This document shows, one piece after another, positions 1 through 43,871 of a stretch of DNA of 64,000 nt; position 1 is the first letter of the stretch; each line of letters opens with the position of its first letter. The translations under genes and the position numbers were made by a program. Origin of the DNA: a virus; the IMG/VR virus record IMGVR_UViG_3300045988_168611, positions 32,001-96,000 of that record. One strand, 5' to 3'. The notes beneath the pieces are model-generated. The model did not search any database, was not told where the DNA came from, and was given only the letters and a program-made list of their open reading frames with translations.

Positions 1-926
1 TCGATTACGTCGGTATTCGTTCTATCGAAAAGCTCGACGCGAAAGAGAGCATGACCTGTATCTATGTCGACAACGATGAGCACCTGTATCAGGCTGGTGA
101 TTTCATCGTGACGCACAACACGGAGGTCACGAAGCAACTAGCGAAGATTCTTTTCGGTGATGATCAGCGGCACCTCATCCGGTTCGATATGACCGAATGG
201 GGTCGTGACGACAGTGTGGATCTGTTCCGCGAAGAGTTGTCGCGTCAGGTGTGGGCAACCAGTCACTGCGTGCTGCTCTTTGACGAGATCGAGAAGGCGT
301 CCCCGCTTGTCGTGCGTCTGCTGCTCCAGGTGCTCGATGATGGTCGACTCTCTGACAAAGATGGTCGACAGGTGTCGTTCTTGAACACCTACATCGTGTT
401 GACGACGAATGCTGGTTCGGAGATCTATCGCACCATTGGCGAGTACAACGCCGATGATCACGGTAGTGAGGCCAGCATGCGTGAGTATGAGAAGGTCATC
501 GAAGAGTCCATTAAGAGCACGGATGGCGGTAAGTTCCCGCCTGAGCTCCTGGGACGTATCGATGCGATCGTGCCGTTCCAGCCGTTGTCGCGGCCTACGT
601 TGCGCAAGATCATGATGAAGAAGCTGAGTGCTCTCAAGGCTGATGTGAAGCGTAAGCACGGTATCGATCTGACGATCGATAAGCGTGTTGTCGACTTCCT
701 GGTGGAAGATGAGTCGCGTAGTGATTCTGATGCAGGTGGTGCGCGTGACATGGTGCGTCGCATGCAGCGATACCTGTCGACGGAAGTTGCAGCGTTCATC
801 AACGAACACCCCGAGGAACGTGTGATCGCAGCCAAGATTGACGGCACGCTACGCAGCGAAGATGTGAATATTTTGAAGTCTGATGCTCGTGTGGTTGTCT
901 TGCCGTACGACAAGCCACAGGCTTAG
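1..926 (+). CDS. Clp/Hsp100-type AAA+ ATPase, D2-like C-terminal module; 5' end runs off the window
   Basis: The frame is open from nt 3 to TAG at 924-926. Hsp100 D2 hallmarks are present: Walker B LLFDEIEKA, LLLQVLDDGRLSDKDGRQVSF, sensor-1 IVLTTNAGS and PPELLGRIDAIVPF. The position aligned to the P-loop reads HNTEVTKQ instead of GxxGxGKT. Confidence 0.75.
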   Translation, partial: DYVGIRSIEKLDAKESMTCIYVDNDEHLYQAGDFIVTHNTEVTKQLAKILFGDDQRHLIRFDMTEWGRDDSVDLFREELSRQVWATSHCVLLFDEIEKASPLVVRLLLQVLDDGRLSDKDGRQVSFLNTYIVLTTNAGSEIYRTIGEYNADDHGSEASMREYEKVIEESIKSTDGGKFPPELLGRIDAIVPFQPLSRPTLRKIMMKKLSALKADVKRKHGIDLTIDKRVVDFLVEDESRSDSDAGGARDMVRRMQRYLSTEVAAFINEHPEERVIAAKIDGTLRSEDVNILKSDARVVVLPYDKPQA

Positions 927-1082
927 TCATATCGAATCTGCTCGTATGCGAGCACATTTGGCACAAAGTGTGATACCCTCGTATACGAGTGCAAACACAG
1001 TGTGCTTGCCGGTACCTGCACACATTCCCAATGATGCAGGTACCGGCTCACATACAACCGAATCGATCGAAAGGATTTGTCT

Positions 1083-3424: not shown

Positions 3425-3513
3425 TGTCTTTATCATCGTTTTCTCTGGTATGATTAGGTTGGTGAATCAACCGAATCGAAACGACGTAAGAGAAAGGTAG
3501 AAAGGTGGTGCAT

Positions 3514-6500
3514 ATGGCTTTCGGACGAAAGAAATCCGGTGGAGCAGCGCCCCGTGAACACGGTAGCCAAGCGTGGAATCAACTCGGTAAGCAGGATGAG
3601 CTTGACTCACTGGCTTACCAGGATGTTCATGGTGACCAGCAGCTAGAACGTAGTGACATCGAGGCAAAGATCTCTCCGGTGTCGCGCGAAGTCGCATCGG
3701 CTGTTGCCGGTGTGCTCGTCTTCATCCTCGTGTGGGCATTGTTCTCGTTTGGCACGATGGGTGTGACCATGGGCCGTGACGCCCTGTGGCGTTCGTCTGT
3801 TCCGAGCTACGCAGTACAGAACAAGGCTCTGACGAAGGAGCTGGGCAAGCCTGTGTGGAGCGAAGGGTGTTTCTCCCCAGCTCTGGAAACAGGTGAGATC
3901 GATACGTCCGATGAGACGTGCTATGAGGATGCTGAGGATGTTCCTGAGCCACAGTGGCACGTGGATGCCGTCGCAGCAGAAAAGGCTGATCGAGATGCTG
4001 AGTTGGCTCAGCGTCCGAACAGTGCGATCGGTTGGATGCTGTCGTTCGATTGGCTGAAGTTCGTCATGTCGTCGATTGCTGGTCTTGTTGTGTGGGGCTT
4101 GCTGCGTATGCGTTTGCTGCGCAACCTCAAGGCGCAGAATCTCATGCGCGATACCACTGACATCAACCAATACAAAAATGACCAGCACGTAGCACTCCCC
4201 GAAGAAGTGCGTGAGCGTTTCGATGTGGTGCCTGATGTGGGTGCGCACACGGGCGTGAGTGCAACGACGCTGATCTCTCACTCGATGGTTTCGAACAAGG
4301 GCATCGAGAAGGTTGCGTTTGCACAGCGAGCTGAGAAGGACATTCTCGATGAGGATGGCGATGTGGCTCTGTTCGAGGGAGAAGCTCTCACGGACGACAA
4401 TGGCGATGTTGTGACCAAGATGGTTCCGATGTTTGACGAAGAGTTCGGCACAGCCCTGTGGAACGCATCAGGACTGCCGGATAACAAGCAACTGCGTCGC
4501 CGTCTCGATCCTCGTAACGTGCCGTACAACCCAGGCAATGCCAACCGAGATAAGCTCAAGGGTTTCAATACCCTGGCTGATCTGGTGAACGGTGAGTGGG
4601 AACTTCCAACGTATGAGCCACAGCGTCCGGCTGGCGTCTACTACGTGGATACAGCTCCTGCGAACACCATGATTCTGGCTATGACTCGTGCCGGTAAGGG
4701 TCAGACGTACATTGAGCCAATGCTCGATATTTGGATGCGTCAGAAGCGTCCAGACAACATGATCATCAATGATCCTAAGGGTGAGCTCTTGGTGAAGAAC
4801 TATGTCCGCGCTACCATGCGCGGATTCCAGGTTGTGCAGTTCAACCTCATCAATGCCATGAAGACTGACATCTACAACCCTCTCGGAATGGCGGCTGAGG
4901 CTGCTCGTGAGGGTGACCAAACCAAGTGTGCTCTGTATGTCGAGAACATCGCAGATGTCTTCTTCCCTGTGGACGGCGCAGAAGATCCCGTGTGGCCGAA
5001 CGCTGCGAACAACGCGTTCAAGCGTGCAGCATATGGTCTCATTGATTACTACCTGGAAGAAGAGCACCAGCTGCGTCAGTACGCGATGCGCCACGGTATG
5101 GATCAGAAGGTTCTGGAACAGAAGCTCGATGCCATGTGGGGCAAGGTGACGCTCTACAACTGCTACCAGCTGTTCGTGCAGCTCACGAGTAAGAAGCGTA
5201 AGTCTCCGATGACTCAGGTGAACGAGCGCATCAAGAGCGGCTACTACGATCAGCAGTCGTCCGATCCTGATGAAGTCGACGCTCTGATTGAGCACGACAA
5301 GATGCAGGCTGAGCGCATTGAGTTCCTGTGGGAAGGTAAGCCGGAGTCTGACCTGCTCACCCTGTTCTTCAACGCCACTGAGGCTTTGCCTCAGTCGACG
5401 ATGCGTACGTTGATCGCTAACGCGAACAACGCGCTGCGTGCAATGGCTGGAGCCGAGAAGATGCTCGCATCTGTGTACGGTATTGCTATTACGGCAATGT
5501 CATTCTTCACGGATCCGACGATCTCTACTTTGACCTCTGGTACGCCGTCGCAGAACACCGACCTTGGGGGTCTGTCGTTCCCTCGTCGTTTCGGTGTGCG
5601 TTTTGCTCAGAACTTCACCAAGCGTGATGGTCTTATTGGCGCTCAGGCGAAGTGGGATGCATTTGATGATCCTGAGTTGAAGCACAACCTCGGTAAGGAT
5701 TTCGAGCACGAGGATACTGTGGTTCGAGAAGGATGGGCCCGGTACTATTTCGACGGTAAGTTCCCACATGACGTTGCCTACCTGCGACTGCGTTTGTTCA
5801 ACACCCATACGGGTGTTCTCCTGAAGACGTTCTACTTCCAGTTCACGAAGGGCTACCAGCTCTCGCTGAATGGTCGTAAGTTCGTCAAGGATCCGATCAC
5901 GGGTCAGAAGATCGTCCGTAATGGTGTTCTTGTGGAGATGGTGAAGGGTGAGAACGGTGTTCTCGTTCCTGGTCATCTGCGTTATCCGGCAACCCGTCTG
6001 TTGGATAAGGCTGGCAGTCTCAAGACTGTGCGAGAGAATGTTCCTGCGATCATCTTGTCGTCGGTTCGTTACTCGGAGCAACCAAAGGCTGTGTTCCTCG
6101 TGACGCCGCCTCACTTAATGAAGTACGCGAAGCTCGTGCTGATTCTTGTGAAGCAGTTGGTGGATCTGAATTTCGACAAGTCGTATATGACGAAGGCAAA
6201 CCAGAAGCCGCTCTACAAGACTCGTTTCATGTTGGACGAGCTCGGCAACTTGCAGTCTGAGGGCCACGGTATCTCTGGTTTTGAGACCATGCTCTCCATT
6301 GGTCTGGGTCAGGAGCAGCAATTTACGCTGATTCTTCAGACGTTGCAGCAGGCCAGAGACGTGTATGGCGACAGTGTGGATAAGATCATCCAGGGTAACG
6401 TGGCGAACATTGTGTTCCTGAAGTCGACGGATGACACGATGATCGAAACTTTGGCCAAGATGTCTGGTACACGCCACCGCGCTGTGCGAGATTCGAAGAC

Positions 6501-7560
6501 GGTGACTCAGGATACTGAGCGTCTCATCGAAGGTTTGAACGTTGAGGGCAAGGTGTCGTACACGATCAGTGCGAAGGAGGAAAGTGTCATCGGGTACAAC
6601 GATTTGGCGTTCTTGCCGGAGCGTAACTCGATTATCTTCTCGGCAGGCATCTCGCCAATCTGGAACCGTAATGCGGAGATTCTTCCGATGTCGTGGCGCT
6701 TGTTCAGCAACACCATCAAACACCCAGGTCACGAGTATTCGCTACAAACTATTCCGACGCTCTCGTCGGCACTAGAGTTTGACGTGCGTCTCAACCAGCC
6801 TGACTTCATGAAGATGCTCGATAAGCGTATCGAGCAGGCTGCAAATGCAGCTGAGGCGATGGAGTTGTACCAGGAGGCATACGATCTGGATGATTATGGC
6901 ATCTCGATTCTGGATCCCGATGTGTACTCGGCTGAGGTTATGGACCTCATCGCCTCGATCGAGGAAGAGCGTAAGGGCCACGACATGGAGAACGAAGAGT
7001 ATGACATGGACAGTGACGAGGCTCTGCGTGCTCAGTTGGGCTCTGGTTACGACATGTTCAACGAGGATGACGAGATTAACGAAGATGTCCGAGAGGATCT
7101 TGCTGCTCGTCAGGAGATGTTGGCCGATCGAGCGAAGATGCGCTACGCGGAAGGTCAGATTAGCCGTGAGCATCTGATGAGTGAGAGTGGACAGGTGTTG
7201 CACCATCTCGATGGTGACATCATTGCTGCGTATCGTGAAGCGAAGCACCCAATGGCGTCTGATGCACGGTTCTTCAGAACCGATGCGAATGGTTCGCTGT
7301 GCTCGTTGGATGGACAGATGTACATCAGTCAGGGTGTGTCGAGTGATGAGCTGCGTACTCTCCAAGCTGCATCGTCCGATGAGACGAGCGGTGTGTATGC
7401 AGACGATGAGTCGATCTCTGAGATCGCGGATCTGGGCTCGTGGCGAGTTCATGATGCGTTCTATAGGTTCTTGCACGGCCTGGAGTCGTGGGAGGATCTC
7501 GGCGGAGGCGCTTTCGATCGCGCTATTGCGCGAGTGTTCGAACGTCGAGAGAACGAGTGA
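3514..7560 (+). CDS. Type IV secretion coupling protein (VirD4/TraG family) with N-terminal TM segments and long acidic C-terminal extension
   Basis: ATG at 3514 follows GAAAGGTGG. Two hydrophobic helices lie near the N-terminus. The VirD4-type P-loop context is MILAMTRAGKGQTYIEPMLDIW...INDPKGELL. The Walker B / TraG motif is RFMLDELGNLQ...FTLILQTLQQARDVYG...NIVFLKSTD. Confidence 0.85.
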   Translation: MAFGRKKSGGAAPREHGSQAWNQLGKQDELDSLAYQDVHGDQQLERSDIEAKISPVSREVASAVAGVLVFILVWALFSFGTMGVTMGRDALWRSSVPSYAVQNKALTKELGKPVWSEGCFSPALETGEIDTSDETCYEDAEDVPEPQWHVDAVAAEKADRDAELAQRPNSAIGWMLSFDWLKFVMSSIAGLVVWGLLRMRLLRNLKAQNLMRDTTDINQYKNDQHVALPEEVRERFDVVPDVGAHTGVSATTLISHSMVSNKGIEKVAFAQRAEKDILDEDGDVALFEGEALTDDNGDVVTKMVPMFDEEFGTALWNASGLPDNKQLRRRLDPRNVPYNPGNANRDKLKGFNTLADLVNGEWELPTYEPQRPAGVYYVDTAPANTMILAMTRAGKGQTYIEPMLDIWMRQKRPDNMIINDPKGELLVKNYVRATMRGFQVVQFNLINAMKTDIYNPLGMAAEAAREGDQTKCALYVENIADVFFPVDGAEDPVWPNAANNAFKRAAYGLIDYYLEEEHQLRQYAMRHGMDQKVLEQKLDAMWGKVTLYNCYQLFVQLTSKKRKSPMTQVNERIKSGYYDQQSSDPDEVDALIEHDKMQAERIEFLWEGKPESDLLTLFFNATEALPQSTMRTLIANANNALRAMAGAEKMLASVYGIAITAMSFFTDPTISTLTSGTPSQNTDLGGLSFPRRFGVRFAQNFTKRDGLIGAQAKWDAFDDPELKHNLGKDFEHEDTVVREGWARYYFDGKFPHDVAYLRLRLFNTHTGVLLKTFYFQFTKGYQLSLNGRKFVKDPITGQKIVRNGVLVEMVKGENGVLVPGHLRYPATRLLDKAGSLKTVRENVPAIILSSVRYSEQPKAVFLVTPPHLMKYAKLVLILVKQLVDLNFDKSYMTKANQKPLYKTRFMLDELGNLQSEGHGISGFETMLSIGLGQEQQFTLILQTLQQARDVYGDSVDKIIQGNVANIVFLKSTDDTMIETLAKMSGTRHRAVRDSKTVTQDTERLIEGLNVEGKVSYTISAKEESVIGYNDLAFLPERNSIIFSAGISPIWNRNAEILPMSWRLFSNTIKHPGHEYSLQTIPTLSSALEFDVRLNQPDFMKMLDKRIEQAANAAEAMELYQEAYDLDDYGISILDPDVYSAEVMDLIASIEEERKGHDMENEEYDMDSDEALRAQLGSGYDMFNEDDEINEDVREDLAARQEMLADRAKMRYAEGQISREHLMSESGQVLHHLDGDIIAAYREAKHPMASDARFFRTDANGSLCSLDGQMYISQGVSSDELRTLQAASSDETSGVYADDESISEIADLGSWRVHDAFYRFLHGLESWEDLGGGAFDRAIARVFERRENE

Positions 7561-7643: not shown

Positions 7644-9428
7644 TCAGCGTTCGACGTTCTTGATCCACCGGGTCTTACCCGCGTCATAGATCCTGTAGAG
7701 CTTGTTGGCTAGTGCCGCTTGGTGCTCAGTTTGACCAGGTTTATAGACGAGATCAGGATTGTCGATGAAGCTCTGCTTGGTGTACGTGGAGCGGTGAACA
7801 CGTCGCCATCTCGTGTGGCGTCCGACGTAGCTGTAGCTCGGAGCTTGCTGTTTATCCACAACGAAGCCTGCTGCTTGGTACATCCCGCCGTCAGAGATGT
7901 CGTTATCGCTCCACGATGTCCACGTGTCGACAGGCACAAGCGTCTCAGCGTGAGCAAGGAGCTTGGTGAAACCACCGACGATGACACCCAGTGTTGCGTA
8001 ACGCTGGATGTCCCATGTTCCCGCTGGCAACGAAACGCGCGAACCGTGGTTTTTGCGACCGATGCCAAGCAGAGCACGCAAAACATCGTTCGAGTCATAG
8101 AGGCCAACGTTGACGGTGCAATGAACCGACCCCTGGAGGTGATTGTCCTGCCAGAAACGTCGGGCAATGCCGCCATGGACGAGTTTCACCGTCAGGTTGC
8201 GTGCGTAGAGACGCTCACAGGCCAGCGGGTTGATGTCCGGTAGGACATCGGGCAGACGGTCAACAGCGTGCAGCCTGTGGGCGAGAGCTCGTAGAACGAG
8301 ATCGCGTCGGTGCAGCCAGTCGTCTTCCCATACGTGGACGAGCTGGTACCCTTGCAAGCTCGCCTCGCGTGTTTTGCTCGCGTGGTAGCCGTGAGGCAGA
8401 GTGCGCGAGTGCGCTTCAACGGTTGCGGCCTCGGAGTGCCAGAACACGCCGTTGAACTCGATAGCCAGGTGTTGGTTAGGAATGACAATATCCAGTTCTT
8501 TACCCGAGGGGAGAACTGTATGGTCGTCACCGAGGACCGTGCTGTCGGGGACAAGCGCCTGGATCATCTCGGTCAGGAGTGTTTGCGATGGGTTGGCGTG
8601 GAGCCTGTAACACATTGGGCAACCCGAGGGTTTCACACGGTTACTTGGAGCAGCAAGCCATGTGTGTTCCGGGTTGACCTGGCATTGCCATAGCACAGGT
8701 TCGCCTCCACCCTTGCTCACTACAGTCGTCAAAGACTGATCAACGAGCTGCGAGGCCAAAGCAGGATGTGTGGTCGCTAGGTCATTAACACCAGGAACGA
8801 TCTTTCTCCCGGAGCAGTACGGGCAACCGGTCTTTTTAGTCGTACGGCTGTATGGCGTTGCTTCCCATGTATGATCAGGGTTTTTGGGGCACTGCCAGAG
8901 CACGGATGTGTTTGATCCTGGCTTGAGAGTGGTAGCAAGAGACCGGTCGACGAGCTCAGCAGCCAACTTGGGATGTGTAGTTGCCAAGTCGCTTTGACCA
9001 GAGACGGCACGGCGACCTGAACACTGAGGGCAGCGCGTTCCTTGGCGTGCGACGTTGCTGAGCGGAGCAGTCCAGTGATCGTGCATAGGGTTACCGCACC
9101 AGAACTCAACTTTCTTGTTGGAAGAGCCGGTGAGCTTTGTTTGTAGGCTCGTATCGACCATGAGAGCAGCCGCTTCGGGGTGAGTGGTGGCAACGTCGTT
9201 GACACCGGGGATCACAGTCTTGCCGTTACATACGCTGCATCCGGTGGGGTTCTTCGCGTTCGTGCGGTTCATGGGGCTGGCCCACCACACGTGACGAGAG
9301 TCAACGGGGCAGCGCCATTGAACCTTCTTGTTTGAACCGCGAGCGATGGATCGTAGGGATTGATCCACAAGCTGGTCAGCAAGGGCGGGATTGAACTGCT
9401 CAAGGGTCTGGGAGGGTTTTCTCGGCAT
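7644..9428 (-). CDS. Zinc-ribbon repeat protein (4 DUF4379-like treble-clef repeats) fused to an endonuclease-like (DUF559/Vsr-like) core and a C-terminal domain
   Basis: Four repeats of about 62 aa fit W-x-C-x(5-8)-H-x-W...GCPxCsG+x(3)PGVNDLATTHPxLAxxLVD. These are followed by ELDIVIPNQHLAIEFNGVFWHSE...LVHVWEDDW. Confidence 0.6.
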   Translation of the reverse strand: MPRKPSQTLEQFNPALADQLVDQSLRSIARGSNKKVQWRCPVDSRHVWWASPMNRTNAKNPTGCSVCNGKTVIPGVNDVATTHPEAAALMVDTSLQTKLTGSSNKKVEFWCGNPMHDHWTAPLSNVARQGTRCPQCSGRRAVSGQSDLATTHPKLAAELVDRSLATTLKPGSNTSVLWQCPKNPDHTWEATPYSRTTKKTGCPYCSGRKIVPGVNDLATTHPALASQLVDQSLTTVVSKGGGEPVLWQCQVNPEHTWLAAPSNRVKPSGCPMCYRLHANPSQTLLTEMIQALVPDSTVLGDDHTVLPSGKELDIVIPNQHLAIEFNGVFWHSEAATVEAHSRTLPHGYHASKTREASLQGYQLVHVWEDDWLHRRDLVLRALAHRLHAVDRLPDVLPDINPLACERLYARNLTVKLVHGGIARRFWQDNHLQGSVHCTVNVGLYDSNDVLRALLGIGRKNHGSRVSLPAGTWDIQRYATLGVIVGGFTKLLAHAETLVPVDTWTSWSDNDISDGGMYQAAGFVVDKQQAPSYSYVGRHTRWRRVHRSTYTKQSFIDNPDLVYKPGQTEHQAALANKLYRIYDAGKTRWIKNVER

Positions 9429-9520: not shown

Positions 9521-9549
9521 TCGAAATAGGGGTTTTTCTCGGGTAGAAT
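9521..9549 (+). promoter_or_regulatory. Candidate sigma70-type promoter of the RNAP operon
   Basis: TCGAAA (9521-9526), a 17-nt spacer, then TAGAAT (9544-9549), about 60 nt upstream of the ATG at 9608. Confidence 0.35.
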
Positions 9550-9607
9550 GGAGGGCGTAATACCCGATCGATCCAGTGGATCGAAACTCCAGGAAGGAGA
9601 ATGCGTT

Positions 9608-12600
9608 ATGCAAACGCGCAATGCCGGACTCCGGCGTTACATGTACGAGCACATGATCGCTCGTACGATCAATCGAACCTCAGAATTGACCAAGACTCCC
9701 ATTCTTGTGTCGCAAGGTCGACGCCTGAGGGATCTCATGGAAGAGCGTCTCAACGAACAAGGCCGTTCTTTCAACGATGGTGATCTCCCTGTTGCTGATG
9801 CGTTGAACGCTATTCAAAGCGTCATGCAGGAGAACGTTCCCGGTTACAAAGACTTGTTCCAACCTGCCGATACGTCGAGCAAGGGTTACAAGGCCCTGTA
9901 TGAAGAGTTCAGGAACATGGTCGGTCTGAATGGCTCTGCTGGAGCTGCTGGTCCTCGTCTGCCGATCTCTCCGTATGATCCTCGGTGGGGGAGCCGTCGC
10001 ACTGTGAAGCAGGCGGGAACGTCTATCCTGTACGTTCTTGATGGTGACATCGCTGCGTATGCAGACGGTAAGCCGAGCAATGTTGAGAAGGTGACGACCT
10101 CGGAGCTCACTCTGTACCGCCTGACTGACGAAGGGAAGGCCAAAGAAGCAGGCCGCGCGTTGAGCCTTGATGATGTCTCGGGTCTCACCGAGCTCATGGG
10201 TCGTATGTCGACGGCTGAGTACAACGAGGTTCGTCAGTGGGTGCTGGACGGTGCTCGCAACCCTGAAACGGGGCGTTACAACGCCCGTCAGTTCATGAGC
10301 ACTGAGGCATTGGCTCGTTCCCGAGCTGTGCTCGATATGCTGGCGGAAGAGGGAATTCCGTACACGATCGAGAAGGATCTGCGTCCTGGCCAGATTCGTG
10401 CGCGTTTGACGGGCACGAATATGACAGTGCGCCTGACTGATACTCGCGACAAGGAGCAGTGGGTGGGCCGTGTTTACGACAACGGTGCGACTTTGTACTT
10501 CTCCACGACGGCTCGTCGAGACAACAAGCAGGTGGCGTATGTGCCAACTGTTGACGAGGTGTGCGACCTCGTGCGCGTTGCGTTGGGTCGACCGGTGGAG
10601 CGTAAGGACGGCAAGGGCCTCGTGGGCCGAGTGGGCGAGCGTCAGACCAGCAAGGGTAAGACGGTTCAGGAGTCGTATCTCTCCACTGGAACACTGACGA
10701 GTGCGTACAAAGACATGCCCGGTATGAACAGTGAGCAGATCGTGATTCGTCGTCAGATGAAGGAGCGTTCTGCGTCGTCCCGGTTCTTTGCTGATACACC
10801 AGAGGGCCGTGAGCAAGCGTCGGCATTCATCTCTGATGCAGTTCACAGCGCTCGCCACAACGTGGCTGAGCAGCTGGATGTCGATGGTCTGATCCAGCAG
10901 TTCCGCGATCACGAGGATGCTGCCCGTGAGGGCGCGTACATCCCTATGTTGTCTGGTGATCCTGATCTGGCGGCAGTTGGCCGTGCGTACTGGGATGTGC
11001 TTCGTGGTGCTGAGACGACGCTACTGAAGCCCGAGGCTACTCGTGCTGAATACGCTGAAGCGACGGGTCTGCTTGACGACATGGATCAAGAGAGCGATCT
11101 GTCGGGTGTTCACGACATGTTGGTTGGTTCCGTGGCGTACACGGGTACCCCGGAAGAGCGCGTTCGCGCTCATCTTCGGGATCTTCTCGATACCCAGATC
11201 GGTATCGATGAGCCTATCGACTCTGATGACTTCGTGTTCGATCCGGTGCGCGTTGCTCGTTACATGGCGAGTGAGCACGGCCAGTGGCGCAATAATGATG
11301 ATCTCGTGGCAGCTATGCGCAGTGCAGGTGTGCCCCAGGAGAAGATCGTCGGGGAGTCGTTCTACTCCAACACGTTCCGCGATCGACTGATCACTTTCGA
11401 TGAGTCCACGGCGTTGCCGATGGATGTCGTGGAGGATACCTTTACTCAGTCGATGCTCCAGGTCGTGTCGGATACGCTGGAGTCCTGCGCTGTGACGCCC
11501 GGTTCTATCCGCGTCGACGCCAACGGTGTTGTGGAGTGGACTGGCTCGATCATGCGCTCGCAGACAGGTAAGGAAGAGCCCGTGAGCGGTACGATCGGAC
11601 AGATCTTTGCTCGCGGCGAGAACGGTGAGATCATCACCCGGTTCAATTCCGGTAACGATCTGATGATCGTGCCTGGTTTTGATGCCCGTGTGGTGGCACA
11701 GAAGCCTGGGGAGAACAAGTCCCTCGAAGAGCGCACCCGGCTGATCGGTTACGAACAGCAGATGAGTGACGCGATTCGATACCGAGTTCAGGCTGATGTG
11801 CTCTCAGGTCGTTCCCGTGTGGGCGAGCCTGCCTCGCTGAACAGCGTGTACCGTCGTTTGTCGGATACGCGCCATCGCGCGGATCACTACGAGCGCGCTC
11901 TCGAAGAAGGCATGGATCGGAAGATCCTTGATGCCATTCTTGCTACCGAAGCGCGTCGTGTGCGTTACCCGAACGCTTTGCGTGATGGGTCGACGATCGA
12001 CGCTGACTTCCGTGCATCTCGTGCTCGGGAACAGGGTATTGGTGGCGATCCGGCCAACGACACGACCATGGATCCGTGGGTGTTGACCGGCGGTCGCAAT
12101 ATGTCGTTGCTCAGCGAAGAAGCCGATGGCTACTTCGATCCGATCATGACATCGGGCGGTGTGAACCAGGGTGTCACCCGTTACCTCGTGTCCGGTGCGC
12201 AGGTGAACCCTGATGGTTCGATCGTGCGTTCTGATAAGAACGATCGTGCGCCGCTGATGTTGACTGAGCAGGCTCAGCTGATGAGCTACGACCCGTTCGA
12301 TCGTCAGCAGATGACGACCTCCAATCTCATGAACGCATCGTCTGTGACGAAGCCTGTGGGTACGGCGTTCATGACTGCCGGTGGTTGGACGATGGAGGAC
12401 TCCATCGTTGTGTCTGCTGACTTCGCTCGTCAATACCGTGTTCGTGGCACTGATGGTCAGATGCGTGATCTGATCGTTGGCGACAAGATCTCTGACATGC
12501 ACGGCAACAAGGGTGTTATCTCGCTCATTGTTGACCGTGACGCGGATCTGTCTCCTGATGAGATCGAAGAGCTTCATGGGTCGACCGATATGATGACGCT

Positions 12601-15058
12601 CTTCCGGGAGAATCCGGGTCTGGATGTCGTCATGGCACCGTTCAGCGCTGTGTCTCGTTTCAACGGTGGTTCTGCCCGTGAGGCAATGCAGGAGACTGCG
12701 CCGCTTCGTTTGCCCAACGGTACGACCGTTGAGGCCGGTATGGGTAAGGTGTCGTTCATCGGTACCCATATGACGGTGGATGCAAAGACAGCCGCATACG
12801 ATGAAGCTGCGATCCGGGCTGGCCAGGGCCGTAAGGCGTCGTCTCAGCTTGCGTGGGCGTTGCAGTCCCAGGGCTGCGATAAGGTGCTGGAGCAGATGTA
12901 CGGTGGCAACCTACAAGCTCTTGCACAGCTGCGTGAGATGGCTCTGGTGTGCGGTTTGGACATCGAGCCTGATGGCACCTTGCGTGATGGTCATGATGAT
13001 CTTGCTGTCGGTGGGCAGCGCCGTCTCATTGAGATGGGCGATGTTCCGCTCACTGAACGTGGATCGTTCGACGTGCGTCGCGTTCGTAACGATTTCGCTT
13101 CGTTGATTGGTGACGCTGGCGGTGATATGGAGATTCCGTTCCCGCTGACGATGCCAACGGGTGCTCGTACGCCTCATGCGACTGATACGACGTGGCGTGT
13201 GCCGGTGCTGAGCTCGCATCTGCGATCGGGCCAGGATCTTGACGACGGTACGTCGACGGTCCATGACTACACGTATCGCTACCTTGCGATCCGTGAATGG
13301 TCGCTGCGCTACAAGCATGCTGCTGATCGAGCTGCGTCTGGTGAGCTGACTGGCAAGGAGCTTTCTGATGCTCGTCGAACGATGGCTGAGGCGATGCATC
13401 GCGCTCAGACTGCGTACGATGGCATTGCACAGGACATCATGCGTCGCCGGTTCACCGGCAAGCGCAATGTCTTCAAGGAAGGTCTCATGGCTTCGCGTCT
13501 GCCGCACTCGGCCACTGCTGTGTGGACGGGTGATCCTCGTCTGGACATCGACCAGGTCGGTGTTGGCCCGGAGCTGGCGAAGAAACTGCATCTGCGTGAC
13601 GGTGATTACGCGCTTGTGTGGCGTGACCCCGTTCTTCGTGATGCGGGTGTGCGTTACATGCGCGTGAGCCTTGACGATCGTCTCACTGGTGTGAGTGTCA
13701 ATCCCAATATGGTCAAGTGCTTCGACGGCGATTTCGATGGTGACTCTGTTGCCGTCGTGAAGCTGGGTGATGGTCCGGCACATGAGCAAGCGCTGGAGCG
13801 CCTGACTGTCGAGGCTAACCTCATTGATCTGGGTCAGAGCATGGATGACGAGGGTCGTTACCCTCTTGCGATGCACAACGCGCTCGATGTGAAGGTGTCG
13901 CAGCACTACGATTCTCGTCATGCGGATGCGATGGATGAGGTCCACCAGCGTGCGAACGACGCCTACTATGATCTCGTGGAAGGGGAGGCTAATCGCGAGC
14001 AGTTCCTGGACGAGGGTCGTGATGTCGTGGATGCAGCGTCCTACATGTACCGTGAGGCGCTCAAGCATCAGTACGGTGAGGCTGTGTTGTCGTTTGGTTC
14101 CGTTCAGGAGCACATGAAGTCTGTGGAGGCTGCGTGTATTGAGACGGGAGCTAAAGGCTCGCCTAAGAAGATGCTGGATTATGCTCGATACATCGGGTAT
14201 GACCCGGAGAACCAGGTGGATCTGGTGACCACGCGCGTGACGCGCGAGGAACAGCTGGGTACCATGTATGCAACGGCTGTGAAGTCGTTTGGTACCGGTG
14301 TTGCCGGTACGTTCTCTCAGCGCGGCGTGCGAGCTCTTCGTAACGACGAGCTCAAGGCTGTGTTGGAGCTGACGTACCCGGTGACGCAGAGTATTCTGCA
14401 AGCCAAGCACGATCCGGTGGATGCTCGTCACCGGTATGAGCTGCTGATGGGTCCGGCTCGAAGCTTGTGGCGTGGTCAGGCGATTGCACAGGATGGCAAC
14501 GGTGTGTGGAACACTGTGACGGACGACGATCGTAAGCCGGTTCAGGCCACCAAGGATCAGTGGGTTGCCATGTTCTCGCAGTTCTACGGCGATGCAGGTC
14601 TGGGTGTGGCTGTGAACAGCGACAACATCACGAAGGTTGCAAATGCGCTCAGCGATAGCAACGGAGTGATGGTGAACCTGGAAGATGAGAAGGTCATTGA
14701 GCAGCTTGCTTCTCCGATGGATCGTCTGGCTTACGGCGGTGACTTCACCACGATGCAAGCGTTGGCTGAGGCTCACGCTAACCTGTTCGAGGGTCAGTGG
14801 AACGCCAAGTTTGCGCCAGCTCGTGTGCGTGAGGTGATGGAGGCCGATGTGGAGACGCAGGCCGAGGCACCGGTGATCGCCATGGAAGACACAGTGGCTC
14901 GTGTGGATCGTGATGAGAAGATCGGTCGACGTAAGTCGACATCGTGGGCTGTTCCGGTGCGTTCGCATACGGGTACCAGTGCAGCTGAGCGTTACGGTCT
15001 GACGGCACAGGTGGACAATGAGGCAGATGTGTCTGTCGACGACGGTTTCGAGTTGTGA
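9608..15058 (+). CDS. Single-polypeptide RNA polymerase with fused beta-like and beta-prime-like double-psi beta-barrel modules
   Basis: ATG at 9608 lies 9 nt after GGAAGGAG. Beta motifs: MEDSIVVSADFARQYRV, GDKISDMHGNKGVISLIV (nt 12478-12530), LDVVMAPFSAVSRFNGG. Beta-prime motifs: RRRFTGKRNVF, GDPRLDIDQVGVGPELAKKL, VWRDPVLRDAGVRYMRV, catalytic CFDGDFDGDSVAVV (DFDGD at nt 13730-13744), GAKGSPKKM and the bridge-helix-like ATAVKSFGTGVAGTFSQRG. Confidence 0.85.
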   Translation: MQTRNAGLRRYMYEHMIARTINRTSELTKTPILVSQGRRLRDLMEERLNEQGRSFNDGDLPVADALNAIQSVMQENVPGYKDLFQPADTSSKGYKALYEEFRNMVGLNGSAGAAGPRLPISPYDPRWGSRRTVKQAGTSILYVLDGDIAAYADGKPSNVEKVTTSELTLYRLTDEGKAKEAGRALSLDDVSGLTELMGRMSTAEYNEVRQWVLDGARNPETGRYNARQFMSTEALARSRAVLDMLAEEGIPYTIEKDLRPGQIRARLTGTNMTVRLTDTRDKEQWVGRVYDNGATLYFSTTARRDNKQVAYVPTVDEVCDLVRVALGRPVERKDGKGLVGRVGERQTSKGKTVQESYLSTGTLTSAYKDMPGMNSEQIVIRRQMKERSASSRFFADTPEGREQASAFISDAVHSARHNVAEQLDVDGLIQQFRDHEDAAREGAYIPMLSGDPDLAAVGRAYWDVLRGAETTLLKPEATRAEYAEATGLLDDMDQESDLSGVHDMLVGSVAYTGTPEERVRAHLRDLLDTQIGIDEPIDSDDFVFDPVRVARYMASEHGQWRNNDDLVAAMRSAGVPQEKIVGESFYSNTFRDRLITFDESTALPMDVVEDTFTQSMLQVVSDTLESCAVTPGSIRVDANGVVEWTGSIMRSQTGKEEPVSGTIGQIFARGENGEIITRFNSGNDLMIVPGFDARVVAQKPGENKSLEERTRLIGYEQQMSDAIRYRVQADVLSGRSRVGEPASLNSVYRRLSDTRHRADHYERALEEGMDRKILDAILATEARRVRYPNALRDGSTIDADFRASRAREQGIGGDPANDTTMDPWVLTGGRNMSLLSEEADGYFDPIMTSGGVNQGVTRYLVSGAQVNPDGSIVRSDKNDRAPLMLTEQAQLMSYDPFDRQQMTTSNLMNASSVTKPVGTAFMTAGGWTMEDSIVVSADFARQYRVRGTDGQMRDLIVGDKISDMHGNKGVISLIVDRDADLSPDEIEELHGSTDMMTLFRENPGLDVVMAPFSAVSRFNGGSAREAMQETAPLRLPNGTTVEAGMGKVSFIGTHMTVDAKTAAYDEAAIRAGQGRKASSQLAWALQSQGCDKVLEQMYGGNLQALAQLREMALVCGLDIEPDGTLRDGHDDLAVGGQRRLIEMGDVPLTERGSFDVRRVRNDFASLIGDAGGDMEIPFPLTMPTGARTPHATDTTWRVPVLSSHLRSGQDLDDGTSTVHDYTYRYLAIREWSLRYKHAADRAASGELTGKELSDARRTMAEAMHRAQTAYDGIAQDIMRRRFTGKRNVFKEGLMASRLPHSATAVWTGDPRLDIDQVGVGPELAKKLHLRDGDYALVWRDPVLRDAGVRYMRVSLDDRLTGVSVNPNMVKCFDGDFDGDSVAVVKLGDGPAHEQALERLTVEANLIDLGQSMDDEGRYPLAMHNALDVKVSQHYDSRHADAMDEVHQRANDAYYDLVEGEANREQFLDEGRDVVDAASYMYREALKHQYGEAVLSFGSVQEHMKSVEAACIETGAKGSPKKMLDYARYIGYDPENQVDLVTTRVTREEQLGTMYATAVKSFGTGVAGTFSQRGVRALRNDELKAVLELTYPVTQSILQAKHDPVDARHRYELLMGPARSLWRGQAIAQDGNGVWNTVTDDDRKPVQATKDQWVAMFSQFYGDAGLGVAVNSDNITKVANALSDSNGVMVNLEDEKVIEQLASPMDRLAYGGDFTTMQALAEAHANLFEGQWNAKFAPARVREVMEADVETQAEAPVIAMEDTVARVDRDEKIGRRKSTSWAVPVRSHTGTSAAERYGLTAQVDNEADVSVDDGFEL

Positions 15059-15089
15059 TCATCATGTGATCATGCGCTGAAGCTATGAA

Positions 15090-15130
15090 GAAGCAGGTCT
15101 CGCCTTTAGGTGGGGCCTGCTTCTTTGTAT
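15090..15130 (+). terminator. Rho-independent terminator/attenuator after the RNAP gene
   Basis: GAAGCAGGTCTC pairs with GGGGCCTGCTTC (two G-U pairs that work only on the + strand) and is followed by TTTGTATT. Confidence 0.7.
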
Positions 15131-15213
15131 TAGTGGAGGCTGGCTTGTGTCGTAATCGTTGCAATAGTGCGATATACTGGTATACGAGTCGAATGCAACT
15201 AAACGAAAGGAAG

Positions 15214-16566
15214 ATGGTCATGTCGACGATATGGTACGAGGGTCCAGCTGATGGCAACATTCAGAGGCGTTACGGTCTTGATTCTCATGAGTGGGTGGGA
15301 TCGCTGTCCGATAGGGTGGCGACAATCATTGACAAGGATGATCCTTGGAAGGAAACGCATGTGAATGCGCTTCTGCGTGATGGTGTGGAATTCTTTGCGC
15401 AGAAGTCTCAGGATCATCCAGAATTGGGTGATGATGACCAGATGCGTGATGCTGTCTCGTATGTGGCACACAGCGGTGTTCTCATCGATGATGAGACTCT
15501 GTTGGCTCTTATAGAAGCGGATGACAAGTATGTTGTTCCGTTTGGTGCAGAGTCGCTTATGTATGAATACAACAAGATGCATCAGCCTGATTACGGACGG
15601 CTGTATCAGCGTGAGCGTGATGCTGCACAGTTGCCGTACGCGGAGGCAACAGATGAAGAGATCAAGCAGTACTATGGCCTTGATCCACATGAGTGGAAGG
15701 GGAGCCTTGCCGATAAGGTGATGGCGATCGTCAACAAGAATACGCCTGACAAGGAAACGCATGTGAATGCGCTCTTGCGCGATGGCGCACGTCTGTTCGC
15801 TCAGAATATGGAAGCTCAACCGGTATCGGGTGTGAGTGACGATGATTTGCGTTACGCGGTGGAATCTGGTGGCGATGAGCTGCGTGCTGCCATCTCTGAC
15901 GCATCATGGGCTGGTGTCCTCATCAACGATGAGGCGATGGAAGCTATCAAGCATGTGGAGAAGGAGTACATCACCGAGTTTGGTGGAGATTCTCTCACAC
16001 GTGCGTACGATCAGATGCGCAAGTTGAACGATGCGCGCGCTCATTACCGCGAGGCTGCGAAGGAGATGCGCACGGCTGCCCCTGTTGCTCCGGCTCCGAC
16101 AACCCCGAGTTTTGATCGGTTCGCTCCGCCTCAGGGTGCGCGTGTGACGACGGTTCCGCCGCCTGTGCGTACTGTTGGGTCTGCTCGATCTGCCCGCTCT
16201 GTACAGCCTGTGCAGTCTGTGCCGCCTATTCCTCAGCCCCCGAAGACGCCGGGATCTCAGGTTCGTACAGGTGGTCCTGTGCGAGTGGGTAATGTCGCCA
16301 AAGATTGGCTCGCGTCGATGGGTCGTGACGAGAAGGGTCATCCTCTTGCGTCTGCGCCTGCACCGTCTGCACAGTCCCCTGCATCGTCTGGGCCTAAGAT
16401 TCCGGCTCAGCGATCGGGTTCGATTCAGGCTGCGCTCCCTGGCAGTGGTGTCACCGTGGGTCGATCGACGCCGCGTGTGCCACCTACTGCTGGTACAGCT
16501 CGTCGTATGAGTGCTCCTGAGCCCCAGGTGCAGACCCCAAGCGTTGATGACGGCTTCGAGCTGTAA
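15214..16566 (+). CDS. Hypothetical protein: tandem duplicated about 110-aa domain, P/A/S-rich linker and VDDGFEL tail
   Basis: ATG at 15214 (or 15220) follows GAAAGGAAG; the track start at 15085 lies inside the terminator. Repeat 1 is nt 15271-15579 (YGLDSHEWVGSLSDRV...KETHVNALLRDG...). Repeat 2 is nt 15673-16017 (YGLDPHEWKGSLADKV...KETHVNALLRDG...). An about 170-aa proline-rich tract follows, ending PSVDDGFEL. Confidence 0.75.
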   Translation: MVMSTIWYEGPADGNIQRRYGLDSHEWVGSLSDRVATIIDKDDPWKETHVNALLRDGVEFFAQKSQDHPELGDDDQMRDAVSYVAHSGVLIDDETLLALIEADDKYVVPFGAESLMYEYNKMHQPDYGRLYQRERDAAQLPYAEATDEEIKQYYGLDPHEWKGSLADKVMAIVNKNTPDKETHVNALLRDGARLFAQNMEAQPVSGVSDDDLRYAVESGGDELRAAISDASWAGVLINDEAMEAIKHVEKEYITEFGGDSLTRAYDQMRKLNDARAHYREAAKEMRTAAPVAPAPTTPSFDRFAPPQGARVTTVPPPVRTVGSARSARSVQPVQSVPPIPQPPKTPGSQVRTGGPVRVGNVAKDWLASMGRDEKGHPLASAPAPSAQSPASSGPKIPAQRSGSIQAALPGSGVTVGRSTPRVPPTAGTARRMSAPEPQVQTPSVDDGFEL

Positions 16567-16608: not shown

Positions 16609-18282
16609 ATGGTTCGCCCACCTCGTCAACTTCCAGCACCTCGGTACGGGGGTGACGTTGGTCCGCAGAAGGATCAAGACGAAACTGCGACGATGGTTGT
16701 TACCAAGGAGCAGATTTTCGATGAGAAGCCTGAACCTGCCGAGCCTACCCAGGCAGTAGAGCCAAAGCCTGCGCTTGATTGGGCGCAACAGCTGAGGCTT
16801 GATATGCGCTACCACGCTGATGGGTATCTTCATGCTCTCAGCCAGATCGATATGAAGTCGATGAAGCGAAAGGCTGACATCGCTTCTCGCATGAACGATC
16901 TTCAGGGTAAGCACAAAGCGTATGCCTCGATGATGGTTCTCAGCGCTCTCATTCCACTGAAAGACGGTGTGTCGATGTCGGCTGTGGCCGAATCTGTTGG
17001 CATGGGCGTCACGATGTGGATGCTGTCGCCTAACTTCCGTCAACAGGTGAAGTCGTTTGCTCGCGATGCTCGTATGGCTGTCGAAGACATGGCAGAGGCT
17101 CGTCGACGCAGTCAGTCGAAACAGTTGCATGATCAGGCCGATCGACATCGGCAGAAGCATGGTGGTGAACTACCGCCATCTCTGAAGCGTCGTCTGGAGC
17201 GTATTGAAGCCAAGGAGCGTAATGGTCGCATCCCGTTTAATGAAGCGAGTGCGGCGTTGACACATCTCGGTTTGAGCGAAGCGATGTTCAACCAGATGCG
17301 TCAACCTGGTGTGGATCCTGCTGGGGTCCAAGAGGGCTATGCACACCTGATGGAGCGTTTCTGGGACGATGTTCAGAAGGACGGCCTGGACCCTGAACGA
17401 GTGAACACCGTCAGCCGCATGCTTATGGGTCAACGGATGCGTTATGAGCCTCATTGGGCGAATGCGTTCGTTGAGACGGCTCATGGTGAAGTCGACATGG
17501 ACATGGTGGAGCAAGTGGATGCTCAGACGGGTGAACCGCGTCGAACGTGGACCGGTATCTGGTCCACGCGCATGGGCGAGCCCATCGTGGGCGGTTCTTT
17601 CACTGTCCGTCCTCCGTACAACGAGATGCAGCATGAGTTGTCTCTGAGTACGTGCATGGCTCGTGAGATGGAGCGTGCAGCGCTGAATGGCAACATTGCG
17701 GATTTGAACGAATCGCTGCTTGCCTATGGTTCTGCCTGGTCTGTTCGGGACAAGAACCTGGATGTGCACAGCGTTCCTGGTGCGATGGGTGAGAAGATTC
17801 GTCGAGCTCGTCGTGGTCTCGATGCCATGGAATTCGATGGTTTCGATCGAGATGCGCAGCGAGACATCTATGCGACATCGTTCGTTCACGCCATGGACAT
17901 GGTGGCGAAGGCTCACCCGGACATCGAACGTCACTGGGCGCAGCAGTATGGGTCTCAGTGGCGATCAGAAATGCGAGACTTCGCAGCGACGCCTGAAGAG
18001 ACCTACAACCGGTGGCAACGGGGGGAGTTTTATTCTGATGCACGTGAATCTCCAGGGCATGACAACGCCCATGCGGATCCCCACACGGAGCGTATGAGGG
18101 AAGACTCAAGGCGCAGGCGCAGCGCGTACAACCGCGCGCGTGACAACCAGGAGTACAACGCTCATGAGACATCAGCGTTTAGCGCTGATACTGATTTCGA
18201 ACTCAACGATGTCGACGACGGGTTTGACATGGGTGGGTACGATCGACCTAATGACAATGATGGCTTTGAGCCGTCTCTATGA
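16609..18282 (+). CDS. Hypothetical protein with acidic DDGF-repeat C-terminus
   Basis: RGS GAAAGGAGGAAAAG precedes the ATG. I recognised no family. The C-terminus is DTDFELNDVDDGFDMGGYDRPNDNDGFEPSL. Confidence 0.7.
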   Translation: MVRPPRQLPAPRYGGDVGPQKDQDETATMVVTKEQIFDEKPEPAEPTQAVEPKPALDWAQQLRLDMRYHADGYLHALSQIDMKSMKRKADIASRMNDLQGKHKAYASMMVLSALIPLKDGVSMSAVAESVGMGVTMWMLSPNFRQQVKSFARDARMAVEDMAEARRRSQSKQLHDQADRHRQKHGGELPPSLKRRLERIEAKERNGRIPFNEASAALTHLGLSEAMFNQMRQPGVDPAGVQEGYAHLMERFWDDVQKDGLDPERVNTVSRMLMGQRMRYEPHWANAFVETAHGEVDMDMVEQVDAQTGEPRRTWTGIWSTRMGEPIVGGSFTVRPPYNEMQHELSLSTCMAREMERAALNGNIADLNESLLAYGSAWSVRDKNLDVHSVPGAMGEKIRRARRGLDAMEFDGFDRDAQRDIYATSFVHAMDMVAKAHPDIERHWAQQYGSQWRSEMRDFAATPEETYNRWQRGEFYSDARESPGHDNAHADPHTERMREDSRRRRSAYNRARDNQEYNAHETSAFSADTDFELNDVDDGFDMGGYDRPNDNDGFEPSL

Positions 18283-24063: not shown

Positions 24064-24090
24064 TTGAATAAAGTGACAAGAATTGAATAA
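24064..24090 (-). promoter_or_regulatory. TTTATTCAA box pair upstream of the helicase RBS
   Basis: The minus strand reads TTATTCAATTCTTGTCACTTTATTCAAAAAGAAAGGAGGGCTCATATG. Confidence 0.4.
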
Positions 24091-26832: not shown

Positions 26833-26855
26833 TTGAATAAATGGGAATTGAATGA
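26833..26855 (-). promoter_or_regulatory. TTTATTCAA box upstream of the Clp-like gene RBS
   Basis: The minus strand reads CATTCAATTCCCATTTATTCAAAAAAGGAGGCACGCCTATG. Confidence 0.4.
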
Positions 26856-28628: not shown

Positions 28629-28640
28629 CGTCACCCCTTT

Positions 28641-28649
28641 CTGAATAAA
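28641..28649 (-). promoter_or_regulatory. TTTATTCAG box upstream of the VWA gene RBS
   Basis: The minus strand reads CCGTTTATTCAGAAAGGGGTGACGATG. Confidence 0.35.
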
Positions 28650-29975: not shown

Positions 29976-29989
29976 GGGGTATTGCCTCC

Positions 29990-30012
29990 TGAATAAAGGT
30001 TGGTTGAATAAA
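29990..30012 (-). promoter_or_regulatory. TTTATTCA box pair upstream of the MoxR-like gene RBS
   Basis: The minus strand reads CTTTATTCAACCAACCTTTATTCAGGAGGCAATACCCCATG. Confidence 0.4.
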
Positions 30013-43862: not shown

Positions 43863-43871
43863 TTGAATAAA
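43863..43871 (-). promoter_or_regulatory. TTTATTCAA box between two hairpins upstream of the 43818 gene
   Basis: The minus strand runs: hairpin 43925-43876 (CACGACCCCTG/CAGGGGTCGTG), TTTATTCAA, hairpin 43858-43833 (GAACACC/GGTGTTC), RBS. Confidence 0.35.

Follow-up and report, generated by a model that had tools for sequence, protein, structure and literature searches.

A probable single-chain two-barrel RNA polymerase encoded in the DNA-transfer module of Gram-positive plasmids

The window analysed here is a 64,000-nt stretch of IMG/VR record IMGVR_UViG_3300045988_168611, and all coordinates below are window positions. It carries a plus-strand gene for an 1816-amino-acid (aa) protein that, judged by its sequence, is a catalytically intact single-chain two-barrel nucleotide polymerase and most likely a DNA-dependent RNA polymerase (RNAP). 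The gene is a fixed member of a plasmid DNA-transfer module across two phyla. The best overall explanation, which we hold with moderate confidence, is a plasmid two-barrel RNAP that makes RNA independently of the host during transfer or establishment. Single-chain two-barrel RNAPs of mobile elements are already known, while this lineage and its transfer-module context are barely described. Comparative papers mention plasmid-borne two-barrel RNAP lineages in passing (PMC10770324; PMC7824862); in the literature searched we found no account of the lineage's anatomy, of its fixed site beside the coupling protein or of the common C-terminal tail described below.

Results

One gene encodes both barrels

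The open reading frame (ORF) spans 9548–15058. We preferred a start at 9608 over 9548 because the Shine-Dalgarno sequence GGAAGGAG (9592–9599) lies 8 nt before this codon and the closest homologues (97%, 87% and 79% identity) open with MQTRNAGLRRYM and equal the 1816-aa protein in length. An initial annotation, made by a model from the sequence alone, had described one 1816-aa ORF with beta and then beta' signatures of multisubunit RNAPs, and every motif that it quoted was found in that order (Table 1). Its figures were also accurate: GDK and DFDGD are separated by 417 aa (given as about 420), and the protein has 66% of the length of Escherichia coli beta plus beta' (1342 + 1407 aa; given as about two thirds). 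The same annotation had raised the possibility of an assembly artefact or a fusion of two genes, which is excluded by more than 100 full-length homologues of the same architecture from isolates and metagenomes, including cultured Arthrobacter, Microbacterium and Streptomyces genomes and complete Streptomyces, Rhodococcus and Gordonia plasmids. Megablast of the gene against PLSDB returned no near-identical plasmid.

A compact cellular-type catalytic centre

The full-length protein matched the Pfam domains PF00562 (RNA_pol_Rpb2_6; 28.7 bits, gathering cut-off 23.4) and PF00623 (RNA_pol_Rpb1_2; 27.7 bits, gathering cut-off 25.3), which rose to 35.2 and 33.0 bits, respectively, when sub-segments were scanned. 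Neither scan detected RNAP Pfam domains (lobes, protrusion, clamp head, jaw) beyond these two core domains. Using hhalign, a 37-member family profile aligned with E. coli beta' 241–493 at 93% probability over 199 columns, a stretch that takes in the lid, switch 2, NRAPTLH and NADFDGD, and with E. coli beta 1057–1112 (GDKMAGRHGNKGVIS, PSRMNIG) at 82% probability.

AlphaFold models were built in two pieces (residues 620–1816 and 1–700) from 70-sequence alignments. The model of 620–1816 had a mean predicted local distance difference test score (pLDDT) of 89.5 and a predicted template modelling score of 0.85, with disorder limited to the last ~50 residues. Its best 50 PDB matches in Foldseek were all bacterial RNAP beta' subunits (E 1.8e-12 to 5e-10), from Thermus, Mycobacterium, Streptomyces, E. 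coli and others, covering mostly ~1000 columns (to ~1050) and ~600 for E. coli-type structures. In a viral structure library, Rpb1 homologues of giant viruses matched best, and crAss-type enzymes matched at E ~1e-5. The fold search with the modelled N-terminal residues 1–700 gave no significant PDB relative (best E 0.028). Both barrel types are recognisable, the beta barrel by profile and the beta' barrel by profile and predicted-fold match. Pfam, hhalign and AlphaFold/Foldseek support the proposal in the initial annotation of a single-chain beta/beta'-type RNAP on a conjugative-type element, and the profile and structure searches gave a placement of RpoB/RpoC type, with beta' as the best Foldseek match.

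We mapped the catalytic residues onto E. coli by hhalign and motif positions and counted conservation over an alignment of 37 diverse family members. A 2010 survey defined eight residues universal to two-barrel polymerases: DxDxD, a beta Asp, two beta Lys and a beta' Arg-x-Pro (PMC2919709). Their counterparts here (D931, K960, K968, R1339, P1341, D1375, D1377 and D1379) are invariant in all 37 members. The survey also gives markers of the DNA-dependent clade, namely the fifth carboxylate Rpb2-E836, the switch-2 Lys Rpb1-K332, the funnel residues Rpb1-G750/K752 and Rpb2-R1020 (PMC2919709). The fifth carboxylate, E930, is acidic in 36 of the 37 members, and the switch-2 Lys, K1285, is K or R in 34. 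In the funnel, G1514 is kept in 35 and K1516 in all 37, with G1517 also conserved; R1017, the equivalent of Rpb2-R1020, is present in 37/37.

The succession of TGAKGS and the predicted bridge helix parallels that of SGARGS (728) and TALKTA (786) in E. coli, an equivalence by motif and order, with no significant alignment. The helix itself comprises 32 residues (aa ~1546–1577; model 927–958), and its ATAVKS resembles E. coli DTALKTA, with no significant residue-level alignment there. The flap (SBHM) insert is absent, as ED and GDK are spaced by 28 aa versus 250 aa in E. coli beta. Only ~1100 aa are RNAP-like, with the core at residues ~700–1760, and the first ~580 aa of the window protein are not shared with the Staphylococcus homologue. 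The core is a compact cellular-type catalytic centre comprising a flapless beta barrel, lid/switch 2, Mg barrel, funnel motif and predicted bridge helix, and the conservation pattern marks the two-barrel active centre as intact and under purifying selection.

A fixed place in the transfer module

The module has the order MobL relaxase, one or two small genes, ClpB-like AAA+ ATPase (often with an intein), ~690–870-aa protein, coupling-protein fusion (~1340–1410 aa), RNAP, one to three uncharacterised proteins and HU. This order was found in Actinomyces, Cutibacterium, Streptomyces and Gordonia pGKT2. The module recurs in outline on the 65-kb Staphylococcus plasmid SAP020A, which retains the AAA+ ATPase and RNAP together with a coupling-protein fusion of 1289 aa that has the same architecture, as well as topoisomerase III and a cell-wall hydrolase. 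Experimental transfer of pGKT2 out of Gordonia has been achieved into both Rhodococcus and Nocardia (Jung et al. 2011, as related in PMC5640721).

In the window, the TraG/VirD4 coupling protein reported near the RNAP gene in the initial annotation was found at 3505–7560, with its TraG/VirD4 domain at aa ~860–1050. The genes for the coupling protein and the RNAP are conserved neighbours in each of the five actinobacterial lineages examined, and likewise on the Staphylococcus plasmid; an exact-sequence look-up of the window protein gave no identical record. The 759-aa protein has a syntenic counterpart of ~690–870 aa in all actinobacterial relatives examined, and the full ClpB-like gene, which is cut by the window start, encodes 1247–1264 aa with an intein in sister elements. 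Pfam scans of window ORFs revealed no homologue of alpha, omega or sigma, bearing out the earlier remark that none is adjacent.

The RNAP gene had also been thought to head its own operon. It gives this appearance in the window only because a minus-strand homing endonuclease gene (7644–9428) splits it from the coupling-protein gene. In Cutibacterium and Streptomyces, the coupling-protein and RNAP genes stand side by side without the endonuclease gene, which is also missing from Gordonia pGKT2, where the gap holds just one 98-aa minus-strand ORF. The element is rich in such selfish inserts, with a second HNH-like ORF at 26928–28634 (minus strand) and, in sister elements, LAGLIDADG inteins or insertions inside the ClpB-like ATPase and UvrD genes.

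A C-terminal tail shared with neighbours and relaxase

The window RNAP and the product of the next gene end with the identical tail SVDDGFEL, which lies inside the predicted disordered segment of the RNAP model. Related tails end further module proteins, including the MobL relaxase of a 97%-identical sister element (Table 1), and are missing from the AAA+ ATPase, the 754-aa protein, the coupling protein and HU. One metagenomic element has eight consecutive genes with tails of D/E-Y/F type, and among the 119 RNAP homologues the tail is always acidic, then has an aromatic residue or Pro. A permissive tail pattern matches 3 of 47 window genes, the RNAP gene and the next two. Seven of 12 module genes are tail-positive, versus 0 of 41 elsewhere (hypergeometric ~5e-6, for a pattern defined post hoc). 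Coupling proteins canonically receive the relaxase as their substrate; as the relaxase shares the tail, the simplest reading is a common docking or export signal. On sequence grounds, the common tail suggests recognition by one partner, with possible delivery into recipients.

Plasmid nature and spread of the element

IMG/VR holds 23 contigs of 67–126 kb with the RNAP gene that are catalogued as viral (for example, IMGVR_UViG_3300045988_168934, 119 kb). They are circularly permuted, fitting a ~119-kb circle. We walked one 119-kb contig outward from both window ends and inspected ~109 of ~119 kb, in which Pfam and PHROG searches detected no capsid, portal, terminase or tail family. The genes found include an antigen I/II-type adhesin, a dNMP kinase, topoisomerase III, an actin-like ParM/ALP protein, TnpB, a PemK toxin and the MobL relaxase. 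As plasmid hallmarks are present and no virion genes were found, we take the element to be a plasmid that was probably labelled viral in error.

A word-indexed search retrieved 119 full-length homologues of ~1770–2900 aa, most of them annotated 'hypothetical', with Arthrobacter, Microbacterium, Cryobacterium, Streptomyces, Saccharopolyspora and Cutibacterium avidum among the named sources. An exhaustive HMMER scan of 1.84 billion representatives gave 579 clusters at 50% identity, 344 of them at E ≤ 1e-30; nearly all of the best-scoring 150 of the 579 measure ~1,800–2,900 aa, with the core beginning at residue ~850–1,600. Family members sit on complete plasmids from Streptomyces, Rhodococcus and Gordonia, and more distant ones (24–31% identity) on plasmids from Staphylococcus and Lactococcus. 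The nearest genome matches are two paralogous copies in one Actinomyces metagenome-assembled genome (MAG), and the window element's host is most likely Actinomyces. Loci in IMG/VR fall at 96–97% and 86–88% identity. Two element lineages, with RNAPs ~87% identical, occur together in one Actinomyces MAG and one metagenome set, which suggests compatible sister plasmids.

Repeated boxes and replication genes

The box TTTATTCAR, that is TTTATTCA(A/G), occurs in six copies versus 0.22 expected in the window. All are intergenic and lie 0–10 nt before the ribosome-binding site of minus-strand genes, often after a hairpin; the genes include those for UvrD and a ClpB-like protein. The initial annotation had described conserved boxes before many genes of the element; the enrichment of TTTATTCAR agrees with this, but no copy lies upstream of the RNAP gene. 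The box may serve the element's polymerase as a promoter, or it may be a 5' untranslated region (5'-UTR) element. Its matches in AT-rich related loci were attributed to chance.

A 56-nt element with the hairpin GGGGCATCGATAGATGCCCC is present in two 79% identical copies (57370–57425 and 60274–60329). The first ends ~60 nt before the plus-strand gene 57484–58329, and the second, in opposite orientation, lies 43–98 nt upstream of the minus-strand gene 59833–60231. With two copies only, it was rejected as a general upstream box.

Beside the gene for a D5-type superfamily 3 (SF3) helicase, the iteron TGTAGCAG is repeated at least 10 times, in either orientation, within the ORF-free stretch 46100–46650, which is likely a replication origin or centromere. 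One 209-aa ORF separates this helicase gene from the gene for a 1063-aa protein with a PHROG 'DNA polymerase' match (Table 1), and the element seems to carry its own, poorly characterised replisome. The gene-poor stretch 54600–55000 holds five ~35-nt repeats with the core CAATGGTGACCAG at an irregular spacing of 58–115 nt, which may be a partition or regulatory site.

Other features of the window

Further along, a plus-strand gene for a GH16 glycosyl hydrolase (55239–56975) contains a Pro/Glu/Thr/Ala/Gln-rich tract at 56290–56740 with 18-nt periodicity, as is usual for linkers at the cell surface. The window gave no match in Rfam and tRNA scans.

Table 1 Features of the RNAP protein, the transfer module and the element (window positions in nt, unless aa is given)
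Feature	Position	Strand	Basis or remark
C-terminal part of ClpB-like AAA+ ATPase, cut by window start	51..926	+	AAA_2, ClpB_D2-small
759-aa conserved module protein	1077..3356	+	379 homologues; no Pfam match
Type IV coupling protein, 1351 aa, long N-terminal extension	3505..7560	+	PF02534, PF12696, PF10412
Free-standing homing/HNH endonuclease gene	7644..9428	-	PHROG 3339 + 559, E 2e-61; DUF4379 zinc-finger repeats
Sigma-70-like TCGAAA-17-TAGAAT (9521-9549) and Shine-Dalgarno GGAAGGAG (9592-9599)	9521..9599	+	Consensus scan, sequence reading; pattern matches only
RNAP-homologue gene, single-chain two-barrel, 1816 aa	9608..15058, stop codon included	+	ORF, motifs, Pfam, 119 full-length homologues
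N-terminal ~700 aa, family-specific, no recognised fold	9608..11707	+	AlphaFold pLDDT 89.3; no PDB or Pfam match
Beta-type barrel DPBB-B: E930-D931, GDKISDMHGNKG (958-969), SRFNGG (1016-1021), without flap insert	12395..12670	+	hhalign to E. coli beta 1057-1112
Motif EDSIVVSADF	aa 930
Motif GDKISDMHGNKGVIS	aa 958
Motif SRFNGG	aa 1016
Beta'-type lid and switch 2, aa 1197-1310, with FTGKRNVF	13196..13537	+	hhalign to E. coli beta' 241-380; phmmer to Rpb1 switch 2
Motif FTGKRNVF	aa 1282
Beta'-type Mg-binding barrel DPBB-A: WRDPVLRD (1338-1345), DGDFDGDSVAVV (1373-1384)	13619..13759	+	Pfam, phmmer, hhalign
Motif WRDPVLRD	aa 1338
Motif DGDFDGD	aa 1373
Funnel-type TGAKGS (1513-1518) and predicted bridge helix (~aa 1546-1577, ATAVKSFGTG…)	14144..14338	+	Motif, order
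Predicted disordered C-terminal ~50 aa ending SVDDGFEL	14906..15055	+	pLDDT <50, model residues 1148-1197
Tail, window RNAP: …SVDDGFEL	15038-15055
Downstream gene, up to 493 aa, ends SVDDGFEL	15085..16566	+	No Pfam, PHROG or PDB match
Tail, next window gene: …SVDDGFEL	16546-16563
Second downstream gene, 557 aa, ends …DNDGFEPSL	16609..18282	+	No Pfam, PHROG or PDB match
Tail, window gene after that: …DNDGFEPSL	18256-18279
Tail, 378-aa protein of 97%-identical sister element: …DDPEF
Tail, MobL relaxase of sister element: …VDSMELG
Tail, 189-aa protein of sister element: …DEPEF
Tail, 174-aa protein of sister element: …GELEF
Tails, Cutibacterium: relaxase …EDPEQGL; RNAP …DDQEMEL
Tails, Gordonia: several …GPxL(G)
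Tail, Staphylococcus RNAP: …DKGFELEM
TTTATTCAR copies	24064-24072, 26833-26841, 28641-28649, 29989-29997, 30004-30012, 43863-43871	-
1063-aa protein	40008-43199	-	PHROG 'DNA polymerase' family only; no Pfam match
D5-type SF3 helicase	43937-45694	-	Without recognisable primase domain; one 209-aa ORF between it and the 1063-aa protein

Discussion

Proposed role and alternatives

In the explanation that we favour, the plasmid RNAP would synthesise RNA on plasmid DNA without the host core enzyme or a sigma factor. We infer that it works in conjugative transfer or establishment, where it would prime the complementary strand, transcribe early genes on the incoming single strand, or both; having its own polymerase would free a genus-crossing plasmid from host promoter recognition. 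The initial annotation had suggested two roles, an element-specific transcriptase or a primase-like enzyme on transferred ssDNA, and either may apply. Through the acidic/aromatic tail, the RNAP may dock to the same partner as the relaxase and the other products of its operon, the likeliest candidates being the coupling protein and the AAA+ unfoldase. By analogy with the Sog and TraC primases, the polymerase might be exported together with the DNA. The complete form of this proposal, in which Gram-positive conjugative plasmids export a tail-marked RNAP of their own with the relaxase-bound strand and the enzyme acts on that strand independently of the host enzyme, is offered tentatively, and we regard it as doubtful.

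Several observations weigh against a role in transfer, against export or against RNA as the product. The RNAP gene is preceded by a sigma-70-like promoter match and the element has its own DNA-polymerase-like protein and D5-type helicase, so the gene content fits a role in the donor or in replication equally well. Acidic C-termini are common, the tail pattern was drawn up after seeing the data, and the Gordonia RNAP tail (…SEGLGA) fits the GPxL tails of its neighbours loosely. A VirB4-type ATPase was not detected with Pfam in ~109 of ~119 kb, nor in pGKT2 and SAP020A, and MOB-suite calls related plasmids only 'mobilizable' or 'non-mobilizable'. The equivalent of beta' N458, which helps to read the ribose, is Asp in 34 of the 37 family members, and the Staphylococcus protein has Gly there, so sugar specificity cannot be taken for granted. 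Our literature search found no experimental work on the lineage.

It is possible, rather than probable, that the enzyme stays in the producing cell and transcribes a set of plasmid genes from promoters of its own, as YonO does, with TTTATTCAR as a conceivable promoter. Such a donor-side transcriptase has a precedent in YonO (PMC5467207) and draws support from the six copies of the box before ribosome-binding sites of minus-strand genes and from the lack of a detected sigma factor gene in the window; the sigma-70-like promoter of the RNAP gene would fit a cascade from host RNAP to plasmid RNAP. However, the box could instead be a 5'-UTR element, and the fixed place beside relaxase and coupling protein across two phyla, as well as the tail in common with the relaxase, would be left unexplained. 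We consider a primase or origin-activating polymerase for vegetative plasmid replication unlikely. It would suit an element that combines a DNA-polymerase-like protein with a D5-type SF3 helicase lacking a recognisable primase domain, with an iteron cluster adjoining the helicase gene and no DnaG or archaeo-eukaryotic primase (AEP) domain among the ORFs scanned. Yet every lineage examined has the RNAP gene inside the transfer module, 25–30 kb away from the replication genes, which are not conserved beside it, and the Staphylococcus plasmid measures only 65 kb.

A phage origin, with a virion RNAP packaged and injected like the N4, crAss and P23-45 enzymes, appears very improbable. The 23 IMG/VR contigs, an automated 'Herelleviridae sp.' name on a homologue of a neighbouring protein, the best local sequence match to P23-45 gp96, and the phage-like replication genes, homing endonucleases and inteins of the element all point in this direction. 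They are countered by the lack of virion families in the inspected ~109 of ~119 kb, by the plasmid hallmarks (MobL relaxase, coupling protein, ParM/ALP, topoisomerase III, antigen I/II adhesin and PemK), by relatives on complete plasmids of cultured strains, and by the count of family members in deposited phage genomes (0 of 50,697). Least credible of all is a function other than RNA synthesis, either as a PolD-like DNA polymerase or as a catalytically idle scaffold. The ribose-sensing Asn of beta' is replaced, and archaeal PolD makes DNA with the same two-barrel core (PMC7708050). The best structural and profile matches are nevertheless to RNAP beta', not PolD, and an idle scaffold is disfavoured as every catalytic residue is invariant, including R1339, an Arg that also contacts the 2'-OH.

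Significance

The conjugation textbook view is that host RNA polymerase or Toprim primases serve the incoming strand. To our knowledge, single-chain two-barrel RNAPs are few, and those characterised come from phages or eukaryotic RNA silencing. Here an RNAP family is tied to transfer machinery in human-associated (Actinomyces, Cutibacterium, Staphylococcus) and soil bacteria (Streptomyces, Gordonia, Rhodococcus). If the RNAP acts on the transferred strand, this would be a new step in conjugation and would help to explain cross-genus transfer; an exported RNAP, if true, would be the conjugation counterpart of phage virion RNAPs and a route to broad host range. The common C-terminal tail provides a testable candidate for a substrate signal of Gram-positive type IV secretion systems. 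With cellular-clade markers retained at less than half the size of beta plus beta', the core offers a natural minimal model for the active centre of cellular enzymes. The analysis also flags a group of ~120-kb plasmids listed among viruses in a viral catalogue.

Comparison with known polymerases

Cellular RNAPs (RpoB/RpoC and Rpb2/Rpb1, including beta-beta' fusions) have the same order of beta, beta' and catalytic motifs as the plasmid protein. The eight universal residues, the fifth carboxylate, the switch-2 Lys, the funnel G-K-G and the Rpb2-R1020 equivalent are common to both, and cellular RNAP gives the best structural match and significant profile matches. By contrast, cellular beta and beta' total 2749 aa, whereas the plasmid core has ~1100 aa and is flapless. 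The plasmid protein adds a 700-aa N-terminal region without a fold match and has Asp at the N458 position; it is plasmid-borne, linked to a coupling protein and without alpha, omega or sigma nearby.

Among phage enzymes, the virion RNAP gp96 of Thermus phage P23-45 (PDB 8H2N; PMC10770324) is the best single PDB sequence match (E 1.7e-6). Its hhalign probability is 95%, but over just 93 columns around the Mg-binding barrel, at 35% identity. As a single chain delivered with the invading DNA, gp96 offers the nearest functional parallel to the proposed export; it is, however, clamp-less and fused to a tape-measure tail protein, and its likeness to the plasmid RNAP is confined to one barrel. Similarity to P23-45 gp64 was rejected (hhalign probability 0.4%).

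YonO of SPbeta resembles the plasmid RNAP as a flapless single polypeptide with both barrels that is encoded by a mobile element, and it is a proven sigma-independent DNA-dependent RNAP that transcribes the SPbeta late genes (PMC5467207). The initial annotation had named YonO and crAss-like phage gp66 as relatives. Both stand as precedents, but neither is close. Membership of the YonO family was ruled out by an hhalign probability of 0.1% and by the lack of an SPbeta match in tblastn against phages, and structures of the gp66 type match weakly (E ~1e-5). The clade of YonO and eukaryotic RNA-dependent RNA polymerase (RdRP), to which crAss-like phage gp66 also belongs, is without the fifth carboxylate (PMC2919709), whereas the plasmid family keeps an acidic residue there in 36 of 37 members. 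At 1816 aa, the plasmid protein is more than double the size of YonO (839 aa). No PHROG family matches it, and tblastn against 50,697 deposited phage genomes returned a segment of P23-45 gp96 as the sole match and no family member. Given these results for YonO, gp64, gp96, PHROG and phage genomes, the plasmid RNAP is neither of the YonO family nor of the crAss type; it is a compact flapless derivative with cellular-clade markers.

NCgl1702-like enzymes are two-barrel RNAPs of mobile elements without the SBHM flap (PMC7824862). There is a circumstantial link to the plasmid RNAPs: NCgl1702 of Corynebacterium glutamicum is part of the CGP3 element, and CGP3 and pGKT2 have an alpAC operon in common (PMC4446434). 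PMC7824862 groups these enzymes with RdRP relatives, whereas the plasmid RNAP has cellular-clade markers. None of the 119 full-length homologues of the window RNAP is a Corynebacterium-named protein.

Phage virion RNAPs travel with their DNA, and the primases Sog (R64) and TraC1 (RP4) are exported to the recipient and act on the incoming single strand (PMC5512222). Pfam detected no Toprim/DnaG or AEP primase domain in the RNAP protein, and the Toprim/DnaG fold of Sog and TraC1 is unrelated to the two-barrel fold, so the likeness would be one of function. Like the plasmid RNAP, Sog and TraC1 are large nucleotide-polymerising proteins encoded in a transfer region.

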